The position numbers were made by a program, and so were the translations under genes. The notes under the pieces were generated by a model that had not been told where the DNA came from, did no database searches, and saw only the letters and a list, made by a program, of their open reading frames with translations. This document shows, one piece after another, positions 13,057 to 27,486 of a stretch of DNA of 64,000 bases (within the stretch, counting starts at the first letter, position 1; each line of letters starts with the position of its first letter). The DNA is from a virus: the IMG/VR virus record IMGVR_UViG_3300010371_000002, positions 29,961 through 93,960 of that record. The stretch is one strand, 5' to 3'.

Positions 13057-14085
13057 TTAGATGGAGGTTCCGCTGATCAGGTAAGCACCGACGATCTTGC
13101 CGGTGGACGGGGCATCGACCGCGACGGCCTTGGCAGTCCTCATGCAAGATGCCTCGATGAACTGGCCCTTGCGGTCCTCGTTGCGGTACCGGCGCACCTG
13201 GAAGCCGCGCACGCCCGTGGTGTCGTCCGGAGCCTCGAAGGTGCGGAAGCCGTGGACGGTGCGCGGGCCGACGCCGACGCTGCGGTAGAACACGACCGCG
13301 AGCGCCTGCCCCTGGTCGTCCACCCACATGTTGTTCGTCGTCACGGCCGCGCCTTCCGCCGCCGTGTTGTACTGCTGGTTCCCTTCCAGGACCGTACAGC
13401 CGCGAAGGTTGCGCACCAGACCGCTTTCGCTCAGTCCCTCCGGGTTGGTGAACTTATACAGGTCCTTGTAGTCCGGGTGGTCGGCGAGCGTGAGGGCGCT
13501 GTCCAGGGTGAGCAGAATGTAGTTCGCTTCCCGGTAGACACCCTTGCGGACCGCGATGCGCCCGTCCCGGATGTTCGAGAACGGATGGGAGTTCGCGGAG
13601 GCGTACGAGAGCCAGGAGGTTCCCGTGCTGCCGGTGGTGAGCTGGGCCGTGTAGCCGCTCGCATACCCGGAGCGCGTCCCGACGATGGTCGCCGTGAACT
13701 TCTCGTAGTCGAGTTTGATGCGCTCGGTCACGAGATAGGTGGCGTCGATGTCGGGCTGCAGCGGGCTGTCCGCGATGGCGATTTCCGCGTCCGTCACGAG
13801 ATCGCGCAGGGCGAACTCCTCCGTGTAGTAGGAGTCCGTGGAGAGCGTGAAGTCGATCTCGGCCGCTTCGGTTTTTGGCCGCCGGATGGACCGGGGCCGG
13901 TTATTGGCGTCCAGTCCGCTGGTCGAGAGGAACGTCGCCCGGTCGTACACGAAGTACTTGTTGGAGCGCACGTCCACCGGCAGCGGCGGGGCCACGACAT
14001 CCGCAATCAGGGAGTCGTTCATGTAGGCGATCGAGACCTCGGTGAGAGCGCGATCGATGTGGAGACTTGTCAGCGCAGGCATCAT
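13057..14085 (-). CDS. Major capsid protein
   Basis: 342 aa; IDRALTEVSIAYMN..IAD.VAP.LPV and W...HPFSNI segments typical of HK97-fold capsids; follows scaffold and cement genes. Confidence 0.85.
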   Translation of the reverse strand: MMPALTSLHIDRALTEVSIAYMNDSLIADVVAPPLPVDVRSNKYFVYDRATFLSTSGLDANNRPRSIRRPKTEAAEIDFTLSTDSYYTEEFALRDLVTDAEIAIADSPLQPDIDATYLVTERIKLDYEKFTATIVGTRSGYASGYTAQLTTGSTGTSWLSYASANSHPFSNIRDGRIAVRKGVYREANYILLTLDSALTLADHPDYKDLYKFTNPEGLSESGLVRNLRGCTVLEGNQQYNTAAEGAAVTTNNMWVDDQGQALAVVFYRSVGVGPRTVHGFRTFEAPDDTTGVRGFQVRRYRNEDRKGQFIEASCMRTAKAVAVDAPSTGKIVGAYLISGTSI

Positions 14086-14094
14086 GCCCTCCTT

Positions 14095-14493
14095 TTACAG
14101 CCGGGTCAGTTCCGGGTTGATCAGTACGTCCACCAGATTGCCCGACGTGGCGTTCGTCACCGCCGTCCCGACCACCTGGGCCACGATCGCCCCCGTGGTA
14201 TTGGGCACGATCGGGACAGCCTGCCCGATGGCGTTCGAGGCGACTTGCTGGCCTGCCGTGATGGTTGCGCCCGCGATGATCTGGCAGATATCATCGATCT
14301 GGACCGCGACGTTGCCGTCCGAGTCCGAGGGTTCGCCGGTGACACCGGCGAACGGCTGGGCGTTCGCGGTCGAGAGCGCCACGGCTCCCTGGTTCACCGT
14401 CGAAACGATGACGATCAGGTTCGCGCCGACGGGCGTGGTGGGCGCTCCGTCAACCGTGAATGTCCGGCGTCGGCCGGTATGCTGATAGGCCAT
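14095..14493 (-). CDS. Capsid cement/decoration protein (DUF2190-like)
   Basis: AGATITAGQQVASNAIGQAV...VGTAVTNATSGNLVDVLI. Confidence 0.75.
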   Translation of the reverse strand: MAYQHTGRRRTFTVDGAPTTPVGANLIVIVSTVNQGAVALSTANAQPFAGVTGEPSDSDGNVAVQIDDICQIIAGATITAGQQVASNAIGQAVPIVPNTTGAIVAQVVGTAVTNATSGNLVDVLINPELTRL

Positions 14494-17400
14494 TATTTTC
14501 CTCCTGCCACCGGCGCGCTGGCGCGGTACGCCGCCGCCTTATCGGGATGCTCGCGCGAAACGATTTCGAGCGCCTTACCGAACGTGATGTTGTCCTTCTT
14601 GGCGCGGTCCCGCGCGAAGGTGATGATCTCCGCGTCATCGGCACCGTTTTGGGTGCCGCGCGGAACTCGTGTGGACTGGAAGCCCACGAGCGCCGCGATG
14701 GGCTCCCGGTCCTGGTACAGAGGCCGGATGTGGGCGTCGAAGAACGCCGGTTCCACTTCCCCAAGCTTCTTCGTCAGCGATTCCGCCTCGTGCGAGGTGA
14801 TGCGGAACTCATCCGCCATGGACTTGATCCAGGCGCTGTTCTGCGCGAAATGCGCCGCTTTCGCCTGCTCGGCCTGCTTCGTCTGCTCGGCGGAAAAGTC
14901 GGTTTTGAGCGCGACATTCTCTTCCCGAAGTTTTGCGAGTTCGACTTTCAGTGAACTGAACTCGGCCTTGTCGGCCTCACTGAGACCACCACCGGTCGTG
15001 GTCGCCCCTGCATCGGCTTCCTTGGTCGCTTCCGCGAAGACGGCTACGACCTGCTCTTCCGTCGCGTCGTCCGGCAGCTTCTTGAACTTTGCGGCGATTG
15101 TCTGCCACACATTCATTTTTTTCTCCTTGCCGGACCTGTCGGCCGACATCATCGCGGGCAGGCTCGTCATCGAAGCTTGATGAGCGAGCGGGTGCCCAAT
15201 GGCGAGTTTGCTCATGTACGCATCGCAGTCCGCGCCCATTTTGGCCGCGTTATCGTGATGCTTCTGGATCTCCCGCAAGAGTTCGGGAGTGATGAAGTCG
15301 GCCCGCCCCTCGACTTCCCGGGGCGTACCGAACATCGATTTTCCGGGGCAGTGCGCCCCCTGGCTGCACGCGAAGTCGTGTACGACCTGGTGCGGATTGC
15401 TGTAGTAGCCGCTGGTGTCGCCCATAAGGACCTTCCCTTGAGTCGTGGGTGGACCGCCGGACTGCCCGGATTTGAACCCGGCCGCCTCGGCGGCGTTGAA
15501 GGCCGCCATGAGCGCGGCCCCGGTGATGCGCGGATGCTCAACGAGGGCGAGCCCCGTGAGCTTCTTCGAGGTCCGGTCCCATTCGCACGAGACGGGCTTG
15601 TCCTCGGGGAGCTGGCTGTCCAGCCACTTCGGGATCTTGACGGTGCCGAAGAGCTTCTTGCCATCGGTCCGGGCGTCGATGACGTCGCCCAGCTTCCCGT
15701 CGAGCATCGTGGGGACATGCTCCAGGTCGATCGGCACCGGCGCGAAGTCCTGAACGGCCTGGTTCATCTCGGCCGTGTTCAGCGAGAACTTCTTATCGGG
15801 ATAATCACCGACTTCGAACAGGAAGGAGTTCGGATAGTAGACGTAATCGCCGTCCTCGAACCGGCTTCCTTGATTTGCAGTGAGGCTGAATGCCGCCATC
15901 TTGGCCTTCCTCTTTCCGGTGTAGCCTTTCGGCATCACCGCCGAATCGTCGTCTCCGTCATCGTCCGGCAGCCACGGCGCGACGATCTCGGGATCATGGA
16001 ACTGATCCGCCATGCGCTTGTAGATCTTCTCAAGGTCCTCTTCGGCGGATTTCCGGGACGCCGCCGGGAGATCGGTCTGCTTCAGGCGGGCGGCGGCGTT
16101 GAAGGCCCCGTGCGGGATGATCGTGAGCTTCCCGCCCACGATATCGGCAATCGGCAGCTTGTAGCTGGTGAAGAGCTTGGGGTCGCCCGCGCAGGCAAGG
16201 AACGCCTTGCCGAAGTTGCCTGTCGGCTCCTTGTCGGAGCCCGTGTGGTCCCGGACGCGCTTTGCCGCCGCCCCGGCGTCCCAGGGATGATCGCGCGGCG
16301 CGATGGGAAGCGAAATATCGCCCACCTTGAAGTGAACATGGGCTGGCTGTGGCATGGCGTCTCCTTTCAAGGGGATCACGAAGCGCCGCCCGCGCGCGTC
16401 CGAGAAGGTGATCTCGTCCACGGAATGCTCCGTGCCGATCAGGGAATCGTTTCCGGCGAACTTCGCGCCCTGGCCAGCCTTCACGTAGGCCACCGTCACA
16501 TGCGGGCGGTAATCCGGGAACGTGACCGTGGTGTCGCAGCCGCTTCGGATCTTCTGGTGGAGCGCGTGCAGGTCCGGGCTGTGGACATCAAACTTCACGA
16601 CATCATCGCGCCCGTCCTTGCCCTCGAACACGCTCGTGGGACCGAACCGCAGCGTGACTGGCCCATGATCCTTCACAGCCGCCGCCACGGCATGCGGATC
16701 GAACGTATGGAGTCCGTAGCAGACCGTGCAGTGCGGCGTGTCCTCGCGGCCATCCTCGCCCATGTCAGCATCGGGGATGGATGCCGCAAACCCCGTCACG
16801 AGATCCGCGAGAGCGGGCGGAAGGTCGATCTGCGTGGACGCGAAGGTGTGCCGGAAGTCGCTCGCCCCGAGCCGTGCGGCCATCGCTCCACATTTCGGGC
16901 AGACATTGTAACGCCCTCGAACGTTGTCTTCTGTTTCAAATTCGTGTCGGCAGTTCGTGCAGGCGAACGAGTACCGATGGGGTTTCTCCTCGCCCGTCGG
17001 CTTGTCGATGTGAAGCGACCCCAGATCCGTGAAAGATGCTTTTTCAGAATCATCGGGGGCAACTTCCAGGAAGCACTGGCAGCGAAAGCCGTGGCACGCG
17101 AGATCGAAGCTCTGCGGGTAGAGTCCGGTGGCCGCGAAGTCCTCGGCCGGCATCGGGCCAAGAGACGCCATCTCCAGGCAGTCGCGGCAGGATTCCTTCG
17201 TCGCCCCGATCCGCCAGATGATGGACTGCCCACTCTCCACCGCGCCCGCGACCAATCCCGCCCAGTACTGCGACAGAATCGCGTTGCAATACAGCGTCAC
17301 ACGCCGCCGAACCGTATCATCCGAAAGTGGAGAGGGTTGCGACTGAGAAGTTTGATCTGATCCCTGCTCCGCAGCCGAATTAGCGTCCGCATTCTCGCGC

Positions 17401-18032
17401 GAGATATGAGCGGCATTGGCGAATAAGCGTAGTGCGTCAGCCTGAGTGTCTACAAATGGCTTTGTTGCGTCTTCTGGCGATGAAGCAGATCCCACGGGTG
17501 CTGCGGCGGTAAATCCTTCCTGGTAGGCTTCCTGGGCGTTCTTTTCGATACCGTCGATGGCTTCGGTGATCTCCGAACTCTCGGCGGATGTCACGGCCCC
17601 GTAGAGCAACAGCCAGAGCAGAATCAACCCATGGTGCAGGTTCGCGCTCATCCAGTGCGGCCGCCATGTCCACCCGTCAGGCGCGGAGGAATCGGCGCTG
17701 AACTGCCCCGGATGATCCGCTTCGAGCATCTGGCTCCAGAGTCTGGCGAACCAGGCGCGGCCAGCTTGCCCACCCCAGAGCAGGGCCGACACGTAGCCGG
17801 GGCTGTCATGGGGCAGATCGAGGAACCGGCGATTGCGGAGCCAGAACCGATGCGCCTTGCGTGCCTTGTCAGGGCTGACCGTTCCTCCTGTGGCGATTCG
17901 GTGCGCCCATGCGATGGTTCCGGCTTCCAGGCCGTCGCCGCCATGCCCCGCATCCACCATCCCGGCCCCCGTTCGGCATGCGTCCTGCACGGCTTTCGGT
18001 GGCTTGAAGTCGATGTGGACGTAATTGGACAT
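14493..18032 (-). CDS. Head polyprotein: N-terminal WGG domain + MuF-like minor head domain + Zn ribbon + 2H phosphoesterase (Acb1-like) + YKLP domain + prohead protease + scaffold
   Basis: LLWGGQAG; CRDC...CHGFRCQC; CTNC/CPKC; PHCTVCYG and PHVTVAY (two HxT motifs); YKLPIADIVGGKL; DLEH/VSCEW/LALVEHPR; coiled-coil C-terminus upstream of capsid genes. Confidence 0.8.
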   Translation of the reverse strand: MSNYVHIDFKPPKAVQDACRTGAGMVDAGHGGDGLEAGTIAWAHRIATGGTVSPDKARKAHRFWLRNRRFLDLPHDSPGYVSALLWGGQAGRAWFARLWSQMLEADHPGQFSADSSAPDGWTWRPHWMSANLHHGLILLWLLLYGAVTSAESSEITEAIDGIEKNAQEAYQEGFTAAAPVGSASSPEDATKPFVDTQADALRLFANAAHISRENADANSAAEQGSDQTSQSQPSPLSDDTVRRRVTLYCNAILSQYWAGLVAGAVESGQSIIWRIGATKESCRDCLEMASLGPMPAEDFAATGLYPQSFDLACHGFRCQCFLEVAPDDSEKASFTDLGSLHIDKPTGEEKPHRYSFACTNCRHEFETEDNVRGRYNVCPKCGAMAARLGASDFRHTFASTQIDLPPALADLVTGFAASIPDADMGEDGREDTPHCTVCYGLHTFDPHAVAAAVKDHGPVTLRFGPTSVFEGKDGRDDVVKFDVHSPDLHALHQKIRSGCDTTVTFPDYRPHVTVAYVKAGQGAKFAGNDSLIGTEHSVDEITFSDARGRRFVIPLKGDAMPQPAHVHFKVGDISLPIAPRDHPWDAGAAAKRVRDHTGSDKEPTGNFGKAFLACAGDPKLFTSYKLPIADIVGGKLTIIPHGAFNAAARLKQTDLPAASRKSAEEDLEKIYKRMADQFHDPEIVAPWLPDDDGDDDSAVMPKGYTGKRKAKMAAFSLTANQGSRFEDGDYVYYPNSFLFEVGDYPDKKFSLNTAEMNQAVQDFAPVPIDLEHVPTMLDGKLGDVIDARTDGKKLFGTVKIPKWLDSQLPEDKPVSCEWDRTSKKLTGLALVEHPRITGAALMAAFNAAEAAGFKSGQSGGPPTTQGKVLMGDTSGYYSNPHQVVHDFACSQGAHCPGKSMFGTPREVEGRADFITPELLREIQKHHDNAAKMGADCDAYMSKLAIGHPLAHQASMTSLPAMMSADRSGKEKKMNVWQTIAAKFKKLPDDATEEQVVAVFAEATKEADAGATTTGGGLSEADKAEFSSLKVELAKLREENVALKTDFSAEQTKQAEQAKAAHFAQNSAWIKSMADEFRITSHEAESLTKKLGEVEPAFFDAHIRPLYQDREPIAALVGFQSTRVPRGTQNGADDAEIITFARDRAKKDNITFGKALEIVSREHPDKAAAYRASAPVAGGK

Positions 18033-18038
18033 GGCAAC

Positions 18039-18061
18039 AAAAAAGCGCCCTCGGAGGCGCT
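18039..18061 (-). terminator. Rho-independent terminator just upstream of head polyprotein start
   Basis: AGCGCC-TCCGAG-GGCGCT followed by a T run on the minus strand. Confidence 0.65.
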
Positions 18062-18078: not shown

Positions 18079-18393
18079 ATGCAGTATTGCGAAATGGGGC
18101 GAAATTATATGAATGATCGCAACGAAATCACCGGCTTGAACACATTGTCACAGCCGTGGAATCAAGTCGGCAGCCGCGCACTCTCCACTGAAGACCTCAC
18201 TGCCGTACGGGCCAAGATGATCCGTGAGTGGGGAACACCGAAGCCCGAACCTCATCTCTACGTCCCGGCAAACTGGCAAGAAAGCGAGTACTGGCGGGCC
18301 GCTGTTGGGTTCTGGACAAACGACCGTAGCCTTATCAGTGATCGATACCTGGAAGCCATTAATCACGTGGTCCACGAGATGCTCATGGGGTGA
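18079..18393 (+). CDS. Hypothetical protein (moron)
   Basis: Opposite-strand ORF downstream of TACAAT at 18071; true start may be 18094 or 18109. Confidence 0.5.
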   Translation: MQYCEMGRNYMNDRNEITGLNTLSQPWNQVGSRALSTEDLTAVRAKMIREWGTPKPEPHLYVPANWQESEYWRAAVGFWTNDRSLISDRYLEAINHVVHEMLMG

Positions 18394-18404
18394 TACAATC
18401 AAGC

Positions 18405-18707
18405 ATGGAAAAGCAAATCACATGGTCCGATTTCGCGGGGGCAAAATGCGATCCCGTCGGTGACATGCTCTCAATGGCGGAATCGCGCGAGGACGTCGAA
18501 TATCTACAGCGCATGCTTCTGCGTGAAGACGCGCCCGAGGAAACCGTCAATCGGTTTGAACAGGCAAAGTCTCAGCTTCCGCAGTTTGGTCCAAGTCCAA
18601 TCCGTCCGATGATTCATCCGGCGCTGAATGCTCTTGAACTTGAAGAGGCTGTGCGGGAGTGGATTCGGTCGGGATTGCCGGATCGTCCACGCTCTCAGGC
18701 AGACTGA
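18405..18707 (+). CDS. Hypothetical protein (moron, probably leaderless)
   Basis: TGaTACAAT (18391-18399) 5 nt before ATG 18405. Confidence 0.5.
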   Translation: MEKQITWSDFAGAKCDPVGDMLSMAESREDVEYLQRMLLREDAPEETVNRFEQAKSQLPQFGPSPIRPMIHPALNALELEEAVREWIRSGLPDRPRSQAD

Positions 18708-19376: not shown

Positions 19377-20264
19377 TCAATAGGGATACTGGGCGGCGAC
19401 GTCTTGCATTCGGAGACGGCGGAGCGCGGGCGGCAGGTAGCCATGGAATCCGCAGACGATGGGCTTTCGGTCATGCGGATCGCAATGCCCGCAGTAGTTC
19501 CAGGGATACCGGAGCGTCACAAGCCCCGCTTGATAATCAGGCTCATCCAGTAATAGCCGCATCATGGCGTCCTGGTCATCGGGAGACCCTTCGTGTTCCA
19601 TGGCCCGCACGTGCTCGAAATAGCGCAGGCTGTCCGGTGTGACGCGCACATAGAAGCAGCCAGTCTGCCAGTGGAAGACATCGCCTGCCCAAGGGCAGAA
19701 CCCGATAATCCGCATCCCGAGCCACGCATGCGTCGGAAGTGCCGTTCTCAGATCCACCGAGAGATCCGCCACGAATGAGTCGGCGTCGATCCAGAAGATA
19801 TGCGTGTACCGACCGCTTCGCATGGCCTCCAGAATCAAGTCGATTCGGAACCATTTCGGGGAATGGTTCTCGCCGGGATCAGCCGCGAGGTATTCGTACC
19901 CCTGCCGGTCACAGTACTCGCGGTGCCGCGCTTCATGGTCCCGCACCATCCCCGCGAACTCACCGGACAGACCGCATGTCAAAAAGAGCGGTTTGGCATC
20001 CTGCGCGAAGCTTTCTCTCAGGGTGCCGCGCTCTGCCTGCTCATCCGGCAAACGATTTTGAGGCTTGGAATCGCCAATTCTTGCAACGGTAAAAGACGTG
20101 ATTCTCGTGTGCGGGTTATATACTTCGTCCAGAATGCGAGTTGGGCATCCGGCTCGCTCGTCAAGAATACGTGCGATCAAAGATGGTTCCTTAACGCCCA
20201 GCACCAAGATCTCTGCATCGCTCACTTCAATAAGTGTGATGGTGGAGTCATATTTATCGGTCAT
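19377..20264 (-). CDS. Glycosyltransferase, GT-A fold (GT34/GMA12-MNN10-like)
   Basis: HREYCDRQGYEY...W..IDLIL...IFWIDADS (DxD)...TGCF...DQDAM...WN...H; start 20264 overlaps upstream stop (ATGA). Confidence 0.8.
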   Translation of the reverse strand: MTDKYDSTITLIEVSDAEILVLGVKEPSLIARILDERAGCPTRILDEVYNPHTRITSFTVARIGDSKPQNRLPDEQAERGTLRESFAQDAKPLFLTCGLSGEFAGMVRDHEARHREYCDRQGYEYLAADPGENHSPKWFRIDLILEAMRSGRYTHIFWIDADSFVADLSVDLRTALPTHAWLGMRIIGFCPWAGDVFHWQTGCFYVRVTPDSLRYFEHVRAMEHEGSPDDQDAMMRLLLDEPDYQAGLVTLRYPWNYCGHCDPHDRKPIVCGFHGYLPPALRRLRMQDVAAQYPY

Positions 20265-21190
20265 GCCACGATCCTTGTCACGGACTGAATGAAGGCGCTC
20301 AAATCCTGCTCGTACATGACGAGTTCGATATTGGGAACCTCCAACCAGCGCCGGAAGTAGCTCACCGGCGAGGAAAGCGGCTTGTTGCCGAGCACGCACG
20401 CCGGGAGGCTCTGGACCGCGCAGTAATGCGACAGGCCGCTCGCCGTCGTGATGACGCCAGAACTTTGTTCCGAGAGAGCCATCACCGCCGTCATGCTAGG
20501 GGCGCTGTTCACCAGATCAATAATTCTCGGATGTCTGCCTTTTGGTTCCCAGCCCTGCCCGACAAGCACATACGTCCACGGCGTGTAATTTACGAGGAAC
20601 GACAGCGCTTGCTCCCAGTGCGGCCAGTGATCCTCGATGGGCGAGCTGTTGAGCGAAAGCGGATTGACCACAAAGAAGCGATTATCAATTTGCGATGAAA
20701 CCGATGTGGCCCAGTTCCACGCCGATTGAGGAAGGCGCGCTCCATTCCACCGGTGGACCGCACGCTGACGCATCCAGGGCTGCGAGGCTCCCATGGTGGT
20801 ATTCAGGACATGCCCCGTGACCCCTGCTCTTGCCCGCAGTTCCCTCGTGGGTTCCATGTCCTGATCGAGCGGCGTGTCGGCGATATACCGGCACACGCGC
20901 CAGTAATCCGCCCCGTCGCGAGGCTGCACATGAACGACTTCCCGAACCCCCGATTGAAGTCTCAGGAAACAAGGGATCATGGGATCTCGCGCCCAGCAGA
21001 GGATGCCGCCTTCGCCGATCATGGACCGGAACGCGCCGAAATCGATCAGGCAATCGCCCCAAGCCCCTACGCACGTACCCCAGCGCAAAGGAGGGGCCGC
21101 CGGTCGCCATCGGTGCGGCTTGTCACAGGGCAGCGCGATATTCCCGCCACGCCACGGGTCCGAAAAAGTGGTGTCCTCCATCAAAGACAC
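20261..21190 (-). CDS. Glycosyltransferase, GT-B fold (GT9/heptosyltransferase-like)
   Basis: GAWGD near N-terminus; HWPHW, VLVG, IIDLVN and VITTASGLSHYCA resemble the GT9 DSG.MH motif. Confidence 0.7.
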   Translation of the reverse strand: MSLMEDTTFSDPWRGGNIALPCDKPHRWRPAAPPLRWGTCVGAWGDCLIDFGAFRSMIGEGGILCWARDPMIPCFLRLQSGVREVVHVQPRDGADYWRVCRYIADTPLDQDMEPTRELRARAGVTGHVLNTTMGASQPWMRQRAVHRWNGARLPQSAWNWATSVSSQIDNRFFVVNPLSLNSSPIEDHWPHWEQALSFLVNYTPWTYVLVGQGWEPKGRHPRIIDLVNSAPSMTAVMALSEQSSGVITTASGLSHYCAVQSLPACVLGNKPLSSPVSYFRRWLEVPNIELVMYEQDLSAFIQSVTRIVA

Positions 21191-22308
21191 CTCTCAATCG
21201 GGACCGCGTACAGAACCGTCTCCCACCCCATATCCTCATAGCACCGGGCATAGAATCGGTAGTTCTCGCAGACACTTGCCAGAAAGGCTGGAATGGTCCA
21301 CAGGTCGGATGGGCGGTGATAGAGGCAGCAGGCGATGACGGGGCGGTCACGGCGGATTGTTTCGACTCCACCCCGAAGCGCTTCGAGCTCGGCACCTTCG
21401 ATGTCAAGCTTCCAGAGCGATGTGAGGTGGTATCGGCAAAGCTCATCAATCATCGCCGCCGGAACCTCAATACCCTGGTCGTCAATTCGTGCCGATACTC
21501 CCGATCCATTGATCCGCACGGACTTGACTGCCGGGTCACCGACGAGAGCGCACAAACGCCGTCGGCATTCCGGCAACAATTTCGACTGGATGGCGTTCAG
21601 CTTCTCGAAGTTTCCGGGGTTGGCCTCGATGGTGAAGACGCTAGCCTGGTACATGTCGTACCGCTTGCGGAACTCCAGCATGGTATCGCCGTCATAGGCT
21701 CCGCAGTCCAGAAAGCTCTCATCCTCGCGCGGTCGGTACAGCGTGAAGTCGAAGTAGATATCCTCTGGCAGCGAATACGATGGGCGCGGCTTGTACGTCG
21801 CCGTCCGGTCGCTGTAGGTTTTGAAGAAACCGTAGGCGTCCCGCACGACCTGCCGCGAAGCTTCATCGCTCCACGCATCAAGCCAGGTCTCGGGATGCGG
21901 CGGGACGTCGGCCCATGCGGGCAGCTTCAGCGCGTTGAAGTGCTGCCAGAGCGTCCACCAATGCACGATGCGGTCAGGAGAGACGCCAAGGTCGATAAGT
22001 TGCCGCCGCACATCTTCCGCGCCGAGGTGAACGAGGATGACGTAGGTGGTACAAGCGGGAACCCAGCCATCATGATGAGGCGCATGGATGACGTGCCCAT
22101 TGTAACCAACGGCTAAGTCGTGTTTCGCACCATCGTTATCCATGAAGGCGACGATAGGATATCCTGGGATACCGTCCGGGAAATGTTCCAATAGCTGGCG
22201 ACAGAGATTGCCGCAGCCTACGATTGCAAGGAAGCCGGACGGCGGGATAAGGCACTCCCATTCGGTTTGAGGTGTGGTGGCTTCACAAGGCGCTGTTACT
22301 GCTTGCAT
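21181..22308 (-). CDS. FkbM-family SAM-dependent methyltransferase
   Basis: FLDCGAYDGDT, IEANPGN, WKLDIEGAELEALRG, CLYHRPSDLW; N-terminal Rossmann-like IVGCG...FMDND domain. Confidence 0.9.
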   Translation of the reverse strand: MQAVTAPCEATTPQTEWECLIPPSGFLAIVGCGNLCRQLLEHFPDGIPGYPIVAFMDNDGAKHDLAVGYNGHVIHAPHHDGWVPACTTYVILVHLGAEDVRRQLIDLGVSPDRIVHWWTLWQHFNALKLPAWADVPPHPETWLDAWSDEASRQVVRDAYGFFKTYSDRTATYKPRPSYSLPEDIYFDFTLYRPREDESFLDCGAYDGDTMLEFRKRYDMYQASVFTIEANPGNFEKLNAIQSKLLPECRRRLCALVGDPAVKSVRINGSGVSARIDDQGIEVPAAMIDELCRYHLTSLWKLDIEGAELEALRGGVETIRRDRPVIACCLYHRPSDLWTIPAFLASVCENYRFYARCYEDMGWETVLYAVPIERCL

Positions 22309-24222: not shown

Positions 24223-25725
24223 CTATTTGGAATCGTTGTTACCGGGTGCGCCGTCGGTCGTTTGGGTTGGGTTGTCGCCGGTGGCGTCGCCGTCACCGGA
24301 TGCAGGCTTGCTCGTGACGTTCTGCGGCTTCTGACCGGCGATCTGCTGGGTCTTCTTCACGAGGTCCGCATACTGCTGCGCCTGGTCGAGCATCTCCTGC
24401 TCTTCCGGGCTGATGGGCGGCAGGTCCATCTCATCGCGGATCAGCTTCGCCGTCGGGGCGACGTTCCCGATCTGGACCAGTTCCCCGAACGCTTGGGCGA
24501 GCGCGAGCAGGTTCTTGCGGGCCTTCCCGAGCGACACCATGGGGCAGAGATCAAGGGCGTCGTCACCATAGTTGTAGCGGATGAGTCGCCGCACGAGCTG
24601 ATTGCTCAGCACACCCTCGACCATCTTGCGTGTGAAGTCGAAGCCGAACTGCTGCGTATTCTCGTGGACCTTCCCGAGGGCGTTGGTGTTCGTCCCGCCG
24701 GTCGTGCCCGTTGTGAGAGTGTTGCCAAGCACGGCGGTTGCGATCTGCTGCACGTGCCAGTCAGCCGCCATCTTGAACCCCTCCAGCGCCTTTGCATCGA
24801 GTGAGACGACCTCGTATTCACAGTTTTCCGGGAGAAGTAATGAAGATCCGCTGCGCACCGAGTCGATGGCGGCTGACGCGGCAGCTAGCGCGACGGTATC
24901 GCCGAGAGGGTATTTGACCACCAGGAATGGGCTTCCAAAGCGTTCACAGCCGATGGTCCAGAACTTCAGGATGCCGTCGAGTATCCACCAGTGCTTGTAG
25001 CACGAGCGGCCGTCCCCATCCCCGTAGGGCAATCCGCGCTTCGGGTTGTGGGTGTAGATCAGCACCTTCTCGACGGGCAGCGGCTTCTGGTAGCCTTCGA
25101 GGGGCGAATAGGCATCCACGTTGATCGGGGCCATGGTCCGCAGATCCAGATCCCAGCCGATCTCCTGCGCGGGCTTGGAGGCGATGTACTCCAGCCCCGT
25201 CTTGCCGCTGTACTTGCCGCCCTTGAAGCGCTTCCAGGTCATCTCAGAGACGTGGCAGCCGTCCCAGCATCCCCGCAGCAGCTCGAACAGCACCGCGAGG
25301 AAGTCCTGCGGGAAGTCCGTCTGGTCGTTGCGGATATTCTTCAGCACATATTTCGTGAACTGCGCGAGTTCGTCCGCTTTACCGAAATCGGGGTCTTCAG
25401 GTTCCCGGATGGCGCTCACGATGTCCCAGCCGTCGGAGAGGATCGCGTAGCGCTTGATGTCGAACGGGGCGCGGCACGCCGCCATCGTCAACATCTCATC
25501 GAACTTATCGAAACCAACCTGGTTGATGAGCTGGTCCAGGTTGAACTGCGCGAACCGGAACGAGGCGGCGTAGATGCTGTCATAGCCCGCCATCAGCGAT
25601 TTGAAGCGGTCCCGCGTCTCCAGGACGACGGGCATCTGGTCCCGCACGTAAGCGGATGCCGTCAAGGCGTCGATCGGCTTACTGACTGGCTGGAGTGACC
25701 TAGCGACGGGTTTTGACTTGATCAT
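24223..25725 (-). CDS. Portal protein (Mu gp29/DUF935-like)
   Basis: PYGDG..RSCY..W, CERFGSP..V.KY, IATAVLGNTLT, ALGKVHE motifs; follows terminase. Confidence 0.9.
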   Translation of the reverse strand: MIKSKPVARSLQPVSKPIDALTASAYVRDQMPVVLETRDRFKSLMAGYDSIYAASFRFAQFNLDQLINQVGFDKFDEMLTMAACRAPFDIKRYAILSDGWDIVSAIREPEDPDFGKADELAQFTKYVLKNIRNDQTDFPQDFLAVLFELLRGCWDGCHVSEMTWKRFKGGKYSGKTGLEYIASKPAQEIGWDLDLRTMAPINVDAYSPLEGYQKPLPVEKVLIYTHNPKRGLPYGDGDGRSCYKHWWILDGILKFWTIGCERFGSPFLVVKYPLGDTVALAAASAAIDSVRSGSSLLLPENCEYEVVSLDAKALEGFKMAADWHVQQIATAVLGNTLTTGTTGGTNTNALGKVHENTQQFGFDFTRKMVEGVLSNQLVRRLIRYNYGDDALDLCPMVSLGKARKNLLALAQAFGELVQIGNVAPTAKLIRDEMDLPPISPEEQEMLDQAQQYADLVKKTQQIAGQKPQNVTSKPASGDGDATGDNPTQTTDGAPGNNDSK

Positions 25726-25728
25726 ACG

Positions 25729-27486
25729 TCACCAGACCTTCGAGGTTCCGTAAGGAGAGCGGGGAAGCTGCGCGGTAACACGCTGAGCCTCTTGCAATGC
25801 TTCGCGGGTGTTGCCGCCCTCCTTGACAAGCAGCCGGCGCAGAGCCTGTGTGGCCGTGTCCACCTGATCGTCATACGCGCCAGCCGGGAATGCGGACGAT
25901 TCACCGATGAAGCCATGCACCCATGGGAAGATGTCAGGGTGCGGCAGGTACGTATTGCCTGACTCAATGACGGGCGTCACGGCATGAGCCCTGGCAATCT
26001 TGTCCCCGTCGGGTTCAACGGGCGTCAGCCCTGGGATGCGGCTTTTCAGCGACGCGATAATGGCCGGACCATTCGCCTTGTCCTCAACGAGCTTGGATGT
26101 TGCCTGCGGCCATTTTGCGGACAGTGCAAGGAGTGCGGCTTCAGTTGCCGTAAAATCCAGCTTGTCATGGACCTGATCAAGCAGAAAGGCGTCAGCCGCG
26201 AGCCGCGCCCAGACCTGCCCACACACATAGTCGCTTGTGACAGCGCCCTTGAACGCCATATCCCATGACTGAATGGTCTCATCAAACCAGGGCGGCAGTT
26301 CGATGACCGGGCAATAGACGATATCGCCGTTGTCGAGGCGCAGGGGGTACGGTTCCGTGCGGAAACCCTTGGGCACCCAGAAACGCCACCAGCGCGCCTT
26401 GAGGATCGTTCCTTCGGCCGGCGCCGGACGCTGCTGCATCTGCCCCGCATACCCCGCCGTCCCAAGCCGCAGCCGCTCCGATTCCAACACCGACTTCGGA
26501 AACCGATCCGGCATAAGCAATTCGCCCGGAGTGGTACGTGGATCTCGGAACCCTAACGGGGATCTTCCTTCTTGGCAACTGGGGCATTTACAGCTCGTGG
26601 AGATCTCGTACTCCATGGGAAGAACCATGTGGTAGAGGTCGGGGAGCTTGGGCAGAACGTGGCCGGTCCAGTCGCGCTCATGCAAGCGCTGCATGATGCC
26701 GATGCGCAGGGACGACATCATATCGTTGACGCGGTTGCCAGCCTTCAGATCCCACCAGTCGTTCACGGACTGCCGCAGGGCGTCCGAGAGCACTTCCTTA
26801 GCGTCGTTGGGGTCATCGACAAAGAAGGCATCAGCCCGATCTCCGGTGAGTTTTCCCCCACACGTCGCCGCGAGCCGGAAACCCCCTGCGGTGTTCTTGT
26901 AGAAACCCTTCGCATTCTGGTCGGCAGCCATCGACCACTTGGGTTCGAACCAGGATTGATACCAACTCGACTCGATCAACTCCCGACAATACATCGAGTC
27001 CCGAAGAACGAGGTTTTCCGAACCGGACGTGAAGATGGCTCGCCAGGAAGGCCAATGCAACCACATCCACGCCGTTGTGTAGACGCTGACGATGCGTGAC
27101 TTCGCCGTACCGGGCGGGATATTGACCACGAAACTCTTGAACCGCTGCTCGGGTTCGGGCAAGCCCTTCATGCGGGCACGCTGCACGGCCATCCAGTCTT
27201 CGAGCATCGCCTGCACGTGGTCGCAGATCGCGTCCATGTGCCAGTTCCACACCAGCGGCGTGGTCGGCTCCAGGACATGCCACCCTTCACGGAAGAACGT
27301 AGCGAGGGAGGCACGGGCAGCAATGGCAAGCTTTCGCTCTTCTGCCGTCAGGGAAGCGCGTTGCAGTTTTGCGGCGAGCTTCTTTTTGTCTTCCTCGCTG
27401 ACTTTGGCGAAACGAAATGAGGGGGTATCAATCCGTGGAAGCCGGATCGGCGTCGATAGAATCATGGCTCTTGCCTGCCGCCGCAT
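25729..27486 (-). CDS. terL: Terminase large subunit
   Basis: VNIPPGTAKS Walker A; TGDRAD.FFVDDP Walker B; IMQRLHERD; QSWDMAFK, VEDKANG and DDQVD nuclease motifs. Confidence 0.95.
   Translation of the reverse strand: MRRQARAMILSTPIRLPRIDTPSFRFAKVSEEDKKKLAAKLQRASLTAEERKLAIAARASLATFFREGWHVLEPTTPLVWNWHMDAICDHVQAMLEDWMAVQRARMKGLPEPEQRFKSFVVNIPPGTAKSRIVSVYTTAWMWLHWPSWRAIFTSGSENLVLRDSMYCRELIESSWYQSWFEPKWSMAADQNAKGFYKNTAGGFRLAATCGGKLTGDRADAFFVDDPNDAKEVLSDALRQSVNDWWDLKAGNRVNDMMSSLRIGIMQRLHERDWTGHVLPKLPDLYHMVLPMEYEISTSCKCPSCQEGRSPLGFRDPRTTPGELLMPDRFPKSVLESERLRLGTAGYAGQMQQRPAPAEGTILKARWWRFWVPKGFRTEPYPLRLDNGDIVYCPVIELPPWFDETIQSWDMAFKGAVTSDYVCGQVWARLAADAFLLDQVHDKLDFTATEAALLALSAKWPQATSKLVEDKANGPAIIASLKSRIPGLTPVEPDGDKIARAHAVTPVIESGNTYLPHPDIFPWVHGFIGESSAFPAGAYDDQVDTATQALRRLLVKEGGNTREALQEAQRVTAQLPRSPYGTSKVW

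Follow-up and report, generated by a model that had tools for sequence, protein, structure and literature searches.

The element described here is a single long gene (P0001) within a 64,000-nucleotide stretch of viral DNA, hereafter the window, which corresponds to bases 29,961-93,960 of a 93,960-nt IMG/VR virus record (IMGVR_UViG_3300010371_000002) with direct terminal repeats, classed as complete. The gene occupies positions 14493-18032 of the minus strand, on which all features below lie unless stated otherwise, and is open without interruption over 1,179 codons, as claimed by a first-pass annotation made from the letters of the sequence. Its product, a polyprotein of 1,179 aa, joins a 2H phosphoesterase domain to a prohead protease and a scaffold-type domain. 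Long antisense open reading frames (ORFs) are also present at the locus because the DNA is 63% G+C; the homologues belong to the minus-strand frame. PHROG matches place the gene between the portal and major capsid genes of a minus-strand late operon that runs from the large terminase (25729-27486; phrog_38, E 1.1e-85) and the portal protein (24223-25725; phrog_113, E 2.7e-53) through the polyprotein gene to a 132-aa gene (14095-14493; phrog_673 'head scaffolding protein', E 1.5e-13), whose start codon shares 1 nt with the stop codon of the polyprotein gene, and then to the major capsid protein (13057-14085; phrog_1005, E 1.7e-38) and the neck and tail genes. No isolated phage comes close: the identity of the large terminase to its counterparts in isolates does not exceed 40%.

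Foremost among the modules of the polyprotein is the 2H phosphoesterase domain at aa ~393-565 (16338-16856), recognised from Pfam matches, the fold of its AlphaFold2 model and its motifs. The two HxT motifs reported by the first-pass annotation are indeed there, H434-C-T436 within PHCTVCYG (aa 433-440; P433 at nt 16736) and H511-V-T513 within PHVTVAY (aa 510-516; P510 at nt 16505), and in a clade alignment of 29 sequences (the query and 28 homologues) both histidines and the first threonine are invariant, the second threonine being kept in at least 90%. Against a curated Pfam cut-off of 27 bits for both families, the domain scores 43.8 bits with 2_5_RNA_ligase2 (PF13563; aa ~431-523), a match also recovered in the genome-wide search, and 35.3 bits with the lower-scoring Acb1 family (PF23474). 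The AlphaFold2 model (pLDDT 91.6, pTM 0.85) was compared with solved structures in the VIA structural search, in which 69 chains were found at Z >= 8, those listed all being 2H proteins. LigT/ThpR-type and CPDase enzymes head the ranking at Z 15.4-14.4 (TT0787, 1iuh, Z 15.4 over 155 aa, rmsd 3.0; 5h7e, Z 15.3; LigT, 5ldm, Z 14.5), with Usb1 at Z 13.8, Acb1 (7T26) at Z 12.3 over 135 residues and the Acb1 of phage BCSR5 at Z 11.8. The order is reversed when a profile of the clade is searched against all solved structures in the PDB, Acb1 entries then being the sole matches (E 3.5e-4 and 0.012). The earlier description of the domain as Acb1-like thus stands in part: the Acb1 family is matched above threshold and the clade profile reaches no other solved proteins, yet both Acb1 and LigT are found by fold, with LigT-type enzymes (Z 15.4-14.5) scoring above Acb1 (12.3), and the 2H domains of so-called polyvalent phage proteins are nearer relatives than either.

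This last affinity emerged from an exhaustive HMMER search, which gave 7,103 matches. Among the best 150 representatives of these, 132 carry a domain of the same clade at 40-52% identity, in proteins whose length has a median of ~1,970 aa and a maximum of 6,867 aa (96 of the 132 are at least 1,000 aa and 63 at least 2,000 aa). Within proteins of 1,000-6,867 aa, the domains reach 45-52% identity to that of the query. The best BFVD match of the 2H model (TM 0.82) likewise comes from part of a giant phage protein, and fold matches in that database include a 'capsid morphogenesis protein' of phage OneinaGillian and structural proteins of Gordonia phages. Judged by these relatives, the domain is a member of a clade found mostly inside giant polyvalent proteins, and a real 2H enzyme related to Acb1 that is apparently active. 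Its substrate cannot be read from sequence, since the nearest relatives are polyvalent 2H domains and LigT-type enzymes score higher by fold; both RNA ends and the nucleotides of immune signalling are candidates. A Pfam search of the 93,960-nt genome found no second 2H domain.

The C-terminal half of the polyprotein is that of a phage protease-scaffold protein. An assemblin-fold serine protease, identified from its fold and conserved residues, spans aa ~722-846 (15495-15869), bearing out the prohead protease proposed by the first-pass annotation. In the AlphaFold2 model of aa 570-900, confidence is high (pLDDT 85-96) for the core of this domain alone, aa ~724-834. With this core, Foldseek returned herpesvirus assemblins at ranks 1-35 among the matches listed (best E 2.7e-4), and an exhaustive, VIA-wide structural search placed T4 gp21 first (Z 9.1 over 110 aa, rmsd 3.3) and the varicella-zoster virus (VZV) protease second (Z 8.7), with unrelated folds following at 6.2 or below. 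A PDB sequence search with the protease profile gave no match, so that the domain is identified by fold comparison alone; the candidate catalytic residues H772 and S815 are invariant in alignments of the protease family. Residues 573-1175 can be aligned over free-standing counterparts 410-575 aa long, among them P0005 (46% identical), P0006, P0008 and P0010, of which P0005 reaches the Pfam family Mu-like_Pro (PF10123) at 28.9 bits. Between protease and scaffold, two copies of a 'Q..HD....GA.C' motif (aa ~876-940; 15213-15407) are kept across the family; another homologue, P0007, has a 2H domain inserted exactly between its two copies. The scaffold-type domain at aa 973-1179 (14493-15116) matches positions 212-405 of the phrog_976 profile at E 0.008, a result that is weak when taken alone and is strengthened by the homologues P0006, P0010 and P0014, which align through the scaffold tail, and by the one that reaches Mu-like_Pro. 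In front of the protease lies the 'YKLP' module (aa ~570-690; 15963-16325), which has no match among Pfam families and is nonetheless a genuine module, as had been claimed: it opens the free-standing protease-scaffold proteins P0005 and P0008, comes after a 2H domain in P0009 and is 40% identical to aa 796-898 of gp11 of the Streptomyces phage BayC. Since the complete genome contains no other Peptidase_S78 or Mu-like_Pro match, and no Phage_Mu_F or second 2H match, the polyprotein is its sole candidate for a capsid protease and for a protease-linked scaffold.

The N-terminal half is more heterogeneous. Its first 110 residues (17703-18032) form the 'WGG' domain named in the first-pass annotation, which matches phrog_2859 at E 0.0013 and recurs in the N-terminus of P0057 (107 bits), in the relative L006 described below and, at 33-35% identity, in part of the 'minor head protein' of a Nodularia phage, where it is located between TUDOR and InPase domains. 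We note that this protein of phage vB_NpeS-2AV2 (L003 3033-4526; 497 aa, encoded just downstream of the portal gene), which consists of Hva1_TUDOR, a copy of the N-domain and a polyvalent-type inorganic pyrophosphatase (InPase, 113 bits), is itself a small fusion of head protein and enzyme, a fusion absent from its annotation. Ahead of the 2H domain, a linker motif (aa 339-345) and a CxxC...CxxC zinc ribbon (aa 354-387) occupy 16857-17033. The ribbon scores 23.7 bits with Pfam Zn_ribbon_8, below the cut-off, and its proposal is upheld by its conservation in L006 and in a second relative, L024. The linker, (S/T)LH(I/V)DKP(T/I)G, recurs at module junctions in three head proteins that have otherwise diverged (17001-17018 in the query, aa 112-118 of the L006 ORF and aa 87-93 of P0011); L024 also keeps the (S/T)LH(I/V)DKP motif. 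The linker may serve as a site of protease cleavage or of docking.

Between these two regions lies an insert (aa ~111-333; 17034-17702) that is missing from L006 and specific to the lineage. Here the first-pass annotation placed a Cys-rich, MuF-like minor head domain (aa ~240-330, with the Cys-rich motif at aa ~281-320), a claim that finds no support in Pfam, PHROGs or sequence homologues. The isolated insert segment matched no Pfam family at E <= 10 and no PHROG, and a genome-wide search for PF04233 (Phage_Mu_F) was negative. No homologue of the insert was found in either large protein collection, including a 5.8-billion-protein collection searched for proteins of near and shorter lengths. 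Pfam scans of seven related protease ORFs gave no MuF match in their N-terminal extensions, and an iterative search that started from the MuF region of P0003, itself verified by Pfam, recruited no further members among the proteins gathered. On the other side, the Cys motif of the insert resembles the N-terminal Cys motif of P0038 (pairwise BLAST E 5e-4), and a language-model search gave a weak lead to a cluster in which 57% of members have PF04233 (score 0.91). A match to talin (E 1e-4) over the Cys-rich stretch, obtained when the whole protein was searched against PDB sequences, was rejected as compositional chance. The insert also carries a hydrophobic stretch of ~13 residues (GLILLWLLLYGAV; aa ~134-147, 17592-17633), unusual for a head-interior protein, which may represent a buried helix or else a short segment that acts on membranes, as in a protein of the ejection type.

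Several internal signals are suggestive of nested expression. A Shine-Dalgarno scan took in the 54 in-frame start-like codons of the polyprotein, and its best matches include three at module boundaries, M560, M712 and M973. The first of these, an AAGGAG followed by five bases and ATG (16353-16369), has the joint best score among the 54 codons and lies at the boundary between the 2H domain and the YKLP module, near the position aligned with the N-termini of the free-standing P0005 and P0008; M560 may be used as a translation start. M712 lies at the start of the protease core. M973, whose ATG (15116-15114) is preceded by AAGGAG and six A, stands before the scaffold domain and is the candidate start of a nested scaffold gene; GGAGG and an ATG likewise precede the scaffold domain in L006. 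Internal starts of this kind would let few full-length, cargo-bearing chains co-assemble with many scaffold chains. At the beginning of the gene, no Shine-Dalgarno sequence was found directly upstream of the polyprotein ATG. A terminator-like hairpin (18034-18061; 7 bp, 5 of them G-C, then TTTTTGTT) ends 3 nt before this ATG, and a perfect TATAAT (18104-18109) with no canonical -35 element lies ~70 nt upstream of it. The hairpin may stabilise the 5' end, or it may control the head genes as a point of attenuation or antitermination.

The fusion itself recurs outside this record. A 1,179-aa variant with one residue changed is encoded on separate ~94-kb contigs. A single-protein scan of IMG/VR found no relative; a scan with an alignment of the protease family retrieved 53 loci, the closest of which, L006, lies on a syntenic 97.7-kb contig whose portal, 132-aa and capsid proteins are 57%, 51% and 62% identical to those of the window and in which a gene located between portal and head genes is 46% identical to its counterpart. 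The L006 ORF of ~781 aa contains the N-domain, the SLH(V)DKP linker, the zinc ribbon, the 2H domain, the protease, the two HD..GA.C motifs and the scaffold, and thus carries the fusion at ~35-40% identity with both HxT motifs intact. Absent from it are the insert at aa ~111-333 and the YKLP module, two modules that, on this comparison, the query protein has gained relative to L006. L024 is a fragment of the L006 type with 2H and protease in one frame. The variant contigs and the syntenic relative argue against the assembly artefact that the first-pass annotation had raised as a possible objection. At the other 51 of the 53 protease loci no 2H domain was found within 6 kb; in this protease family the 2H domain is an occasional accessory that stands outside the assembly machinery.

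Comparison with known systems places the polyprotein within a published type of fusion. Iyer, Burroughs, Anand, de Souza and Aravind (2017, J Bacteriol, PMC5512222) described 2H domains fused to MuF or portal proteins and assemblin-like peptidases at the C-termini of polyvalent proteins, which they probably process, and proposed that the 2H domains degrade the nucleotides of host defence systems. The polyprotein has the make-up by which such proteins are defined, namely one or more conflict-related enzymes joined to a module for packaging into the virion, with or without an assemblin peptidase at the C-terminus, and ranks as a small representative in which a single enzyme can be recognised; it shares with them the 2H clade and the joining of a conflict enzyme to a head-interior module. 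It is unlike them in that the carrier is a complete protease and scaffold with probable nested starts, in that it has one recognisable conflict enzyme rather than many, and in that no MuF domain can be demonstrated. Fusions of MuF with a protease have been documented in actinophages, including Microbacterium cluster EG phages (PMC7302621). A close counterpart in architecture is gp11 of phages BayC and TP1604 ('capsid maturation protease and MuF-like fusion protein'), which at 1,197 aa is similar in size, is likewise encoded upstream of the major capsid gene and, in BayC, follows directly after the portal gene. Its order is MuF, a 2H-like segment with two HxT motifs, YKLP and protease, of which the query shares 2H, YKLP and protease; its 2H match is sub-threshold in Pfam (19.9 bits), its MuF domain is bona fide in Pfam, in contrast to the query protein, and apart from the YKLP module there is no detectable sequence similarity between the two. 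These differences point to independent assembly of the same architecture. The locus is therefore an independently assembled example of a published fusion type and establishes no new principle.

Other systems resemble parts of the polyprotein. Acb1 (the T4 gene 57B family, with structures 7T26 and 7T27 of FBB1 and 9Q2G and 9Q2Y of BCSR5) has the same 2H fold and two HxT motifs; it is a free-standing protein of ~140-165 aa, whereas the query domain of ~175 aa is embedded in a chain of 1,179 aa. As in the nested genes of Mu (gpI/gpZ) and lambda (C/Nu3), candidate internal starts would yield scaffold-only products, and as in gpI-like proteins of Mu an assemblin-fold protease is followed by a scaffold in a gene upstream of the major capsid gene; unlike those of Mu and lambda, the internal starts of the query are predicted from sequence. 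A precedent for such targeting and delivery of proteins comes from T4, where Alt and the internal proteins IPI-III are targeted to the prohead, trimmed by the gp21 protease and injected. The query differs from these capsid-targeted proteins in that its cargo is covalently part of the protease-scaffold chain and carries no short targeting peptide.

Taken together, these features lead us to favour, at about even probability, a head-morphogenesis polyprotein in which the 2H enzyme is carried as packaged and delivered counter-defence cargo. The C-terminal half would serve as a prohead protease and scaffold of the Mu gpI type with the YKLP module in front, and, as the sole candidate for these functions in the genome, would be expected to enter the procapsid. 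The N-terminal half, with its N-domain, lineage-specific insert, zinc ribbon and 2H domain with intact motifs, would ride along as cargo, full-length chains co-assembling through the common C-terminal domain with scaffold copies that are possibly made from internal starts. During maturation the protease would cut its own chain, the 2H fragment would stay in the head and enter the next host cell with the DNA, and in the new cell it would hydrolyse nucleotide immune signals in the manner of Acb1, or 2',3'-cyclic or 2'-5' RNA linkages. Cleavage of the chain, retention of the fragment in the virion, its delivery and its substrate are steps that we infer. In support of packaging, the same enzyme is separately fused to head-interior proteins in P0007, P0002 (portal and 2H), P0003 (MuF and 2H) and, as a sub-threshold 2H match, BayC gp11, and the carriers of 1,000 aa or more that make up 96 of the 132 top representatives of the clade have a size typical of polyvalent proteins. 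Packaging, delivery and signal degradation are plausible, and were already published as a prediction (PMC5512222).

Several observations weigh against this explanation. Because the fold scores of LigT/CPDase-type enzymes exceed that of Acb1, an RNA-end substrate is equally compatible with the domain. The 2H domain is present at just 2 of the 53 IMG/VR loci of the protease family. Scaffolds and proteases normally exit the capsid, and retention of the 2H fragment would require an anchor, none having been identified; a MuF domain would supply one, and the absence of profile support for MuF thus counts against retention. Literature searches turned up no experimental test of a head-packaged Acb1 or 2H enzyme.

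The habitual departure of scaffold and protease fragments from the capsid, together with the location of the gene in a late head operon, would fit a 2H domain that worked late in the producing cell without virion delivery, removing immune signals provoked by head assembly. On such a scheme the enzyme would be made in fixed ratio to the protease-scaffold and then be lost, whether discarded or broken down, as the protease empties the procapsid. The prohead protease-scaffold of T1-like phages is where escape from type I CBASS maps, and the scaffold domain expressed alone triggers CBASS toxicity (bioRxiv 10.1101/2023.05.21.541620); with this protein governing susceptibility to type I CBASS, the fusion would tie the antidote to the trigger. 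Such a late role is a serious rival, which we nevertheless consider rather unlikely: the repeated fusion of the 2H clade to portal, MuF and giant virion-associated proteins suggests packaging over timing, and a free-standing late gene would achieve the same timing without fusion. A further possibility, which we regard as quite improbable, is that scaffold and protease are the late defence trigger and the fused Acb1-type enzyme their coupled antidote, dosed by the internal starts, with the next virion pre-loaded. We know of no phage for which dual-phase counter-defence of this kind, with the alarm neutralised at its source and the virion pre-loaded, has been described.

A different target has been considered as well. 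The domain might act on RNA, either as a 2',3'-cyclic or 2'-5' phosphodiesterase that heals RNA ends after attack by host ribonucleases or as an Usb1-like RNase directed against host RNA. The top fold matches, which are of the LigT/ThpR type, CPDase (Z 15.4-14.4) and Usb1 (Z 13.8), the higher Pfam score of 2_5_RNA_ligase2 and the listing of an RNA role as an equal alternative by Iyer et al. (PMC5512222) all point in this direction. Neither RtcB nor an RNA ligase (PF09414) was found in the genome as a partner, which weighs slightly against repair for want of a ligase to complete the pathway, and among solved proteins the clade profile reaches Acb1 entries only; both forms of this proposal are in our view unlikely. 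Finally, at most about half of the query is covered by any protein in two large collections, and the Shine-Dalgarno sequence and ATG at M560 resemble the retained start of a once-separate gene, as might be seen if the long ORF were an assembly or frameshift artefact joining two genes, or if the 2H segment were an inactive structural remnant. With two alleles of the full-length protein on separate contigs, 2H and protease sharing one frame in L006 and L024, and all catalytic and clade-invariant 2H residues kept, this is highly improbable.

To the published fusion type the locus adds a deep relative that conserves the fusion, signs of nested expression that possibly set the dose of the cargo, and a third independent way of joining the 2H clade to a protease-scaffold protein. 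Should the 2H domain indeed be packaged and injected, phages of this kind would bring signal-degrading enzymes into the cell ahead of all phage gene expression, closing the window for CBASS, Pycsar or type III CRISPR signalling and giving experimental backing to the 2017 prediction (PMC5512222).

The region upstream of the polyprotein gene has features of its own. The ~6 kb between it and the portal gene hold genes without PHROG structural matches, among them a methyltransferase (phrog_8156) which, with its neighbours at 19377-22308, makes up the 'glycosylation cassette' of the first-pass annotation, located between the portal and head genes. The cassette gene at 20261-21190 is the one whose L006 counterpart, at the corresponding position (L006 3617-4453), is 46% identical; conservation of the cassette within the lineage is therefore at least partial. 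The gap of ~900 nt between the cassette and the polyprotein gene has a lower G+C content (0.57) and carries two plus-strand ORFs, 18079-18393 and 18390-18707, which oppose the late operon and may represent an inserted moron.

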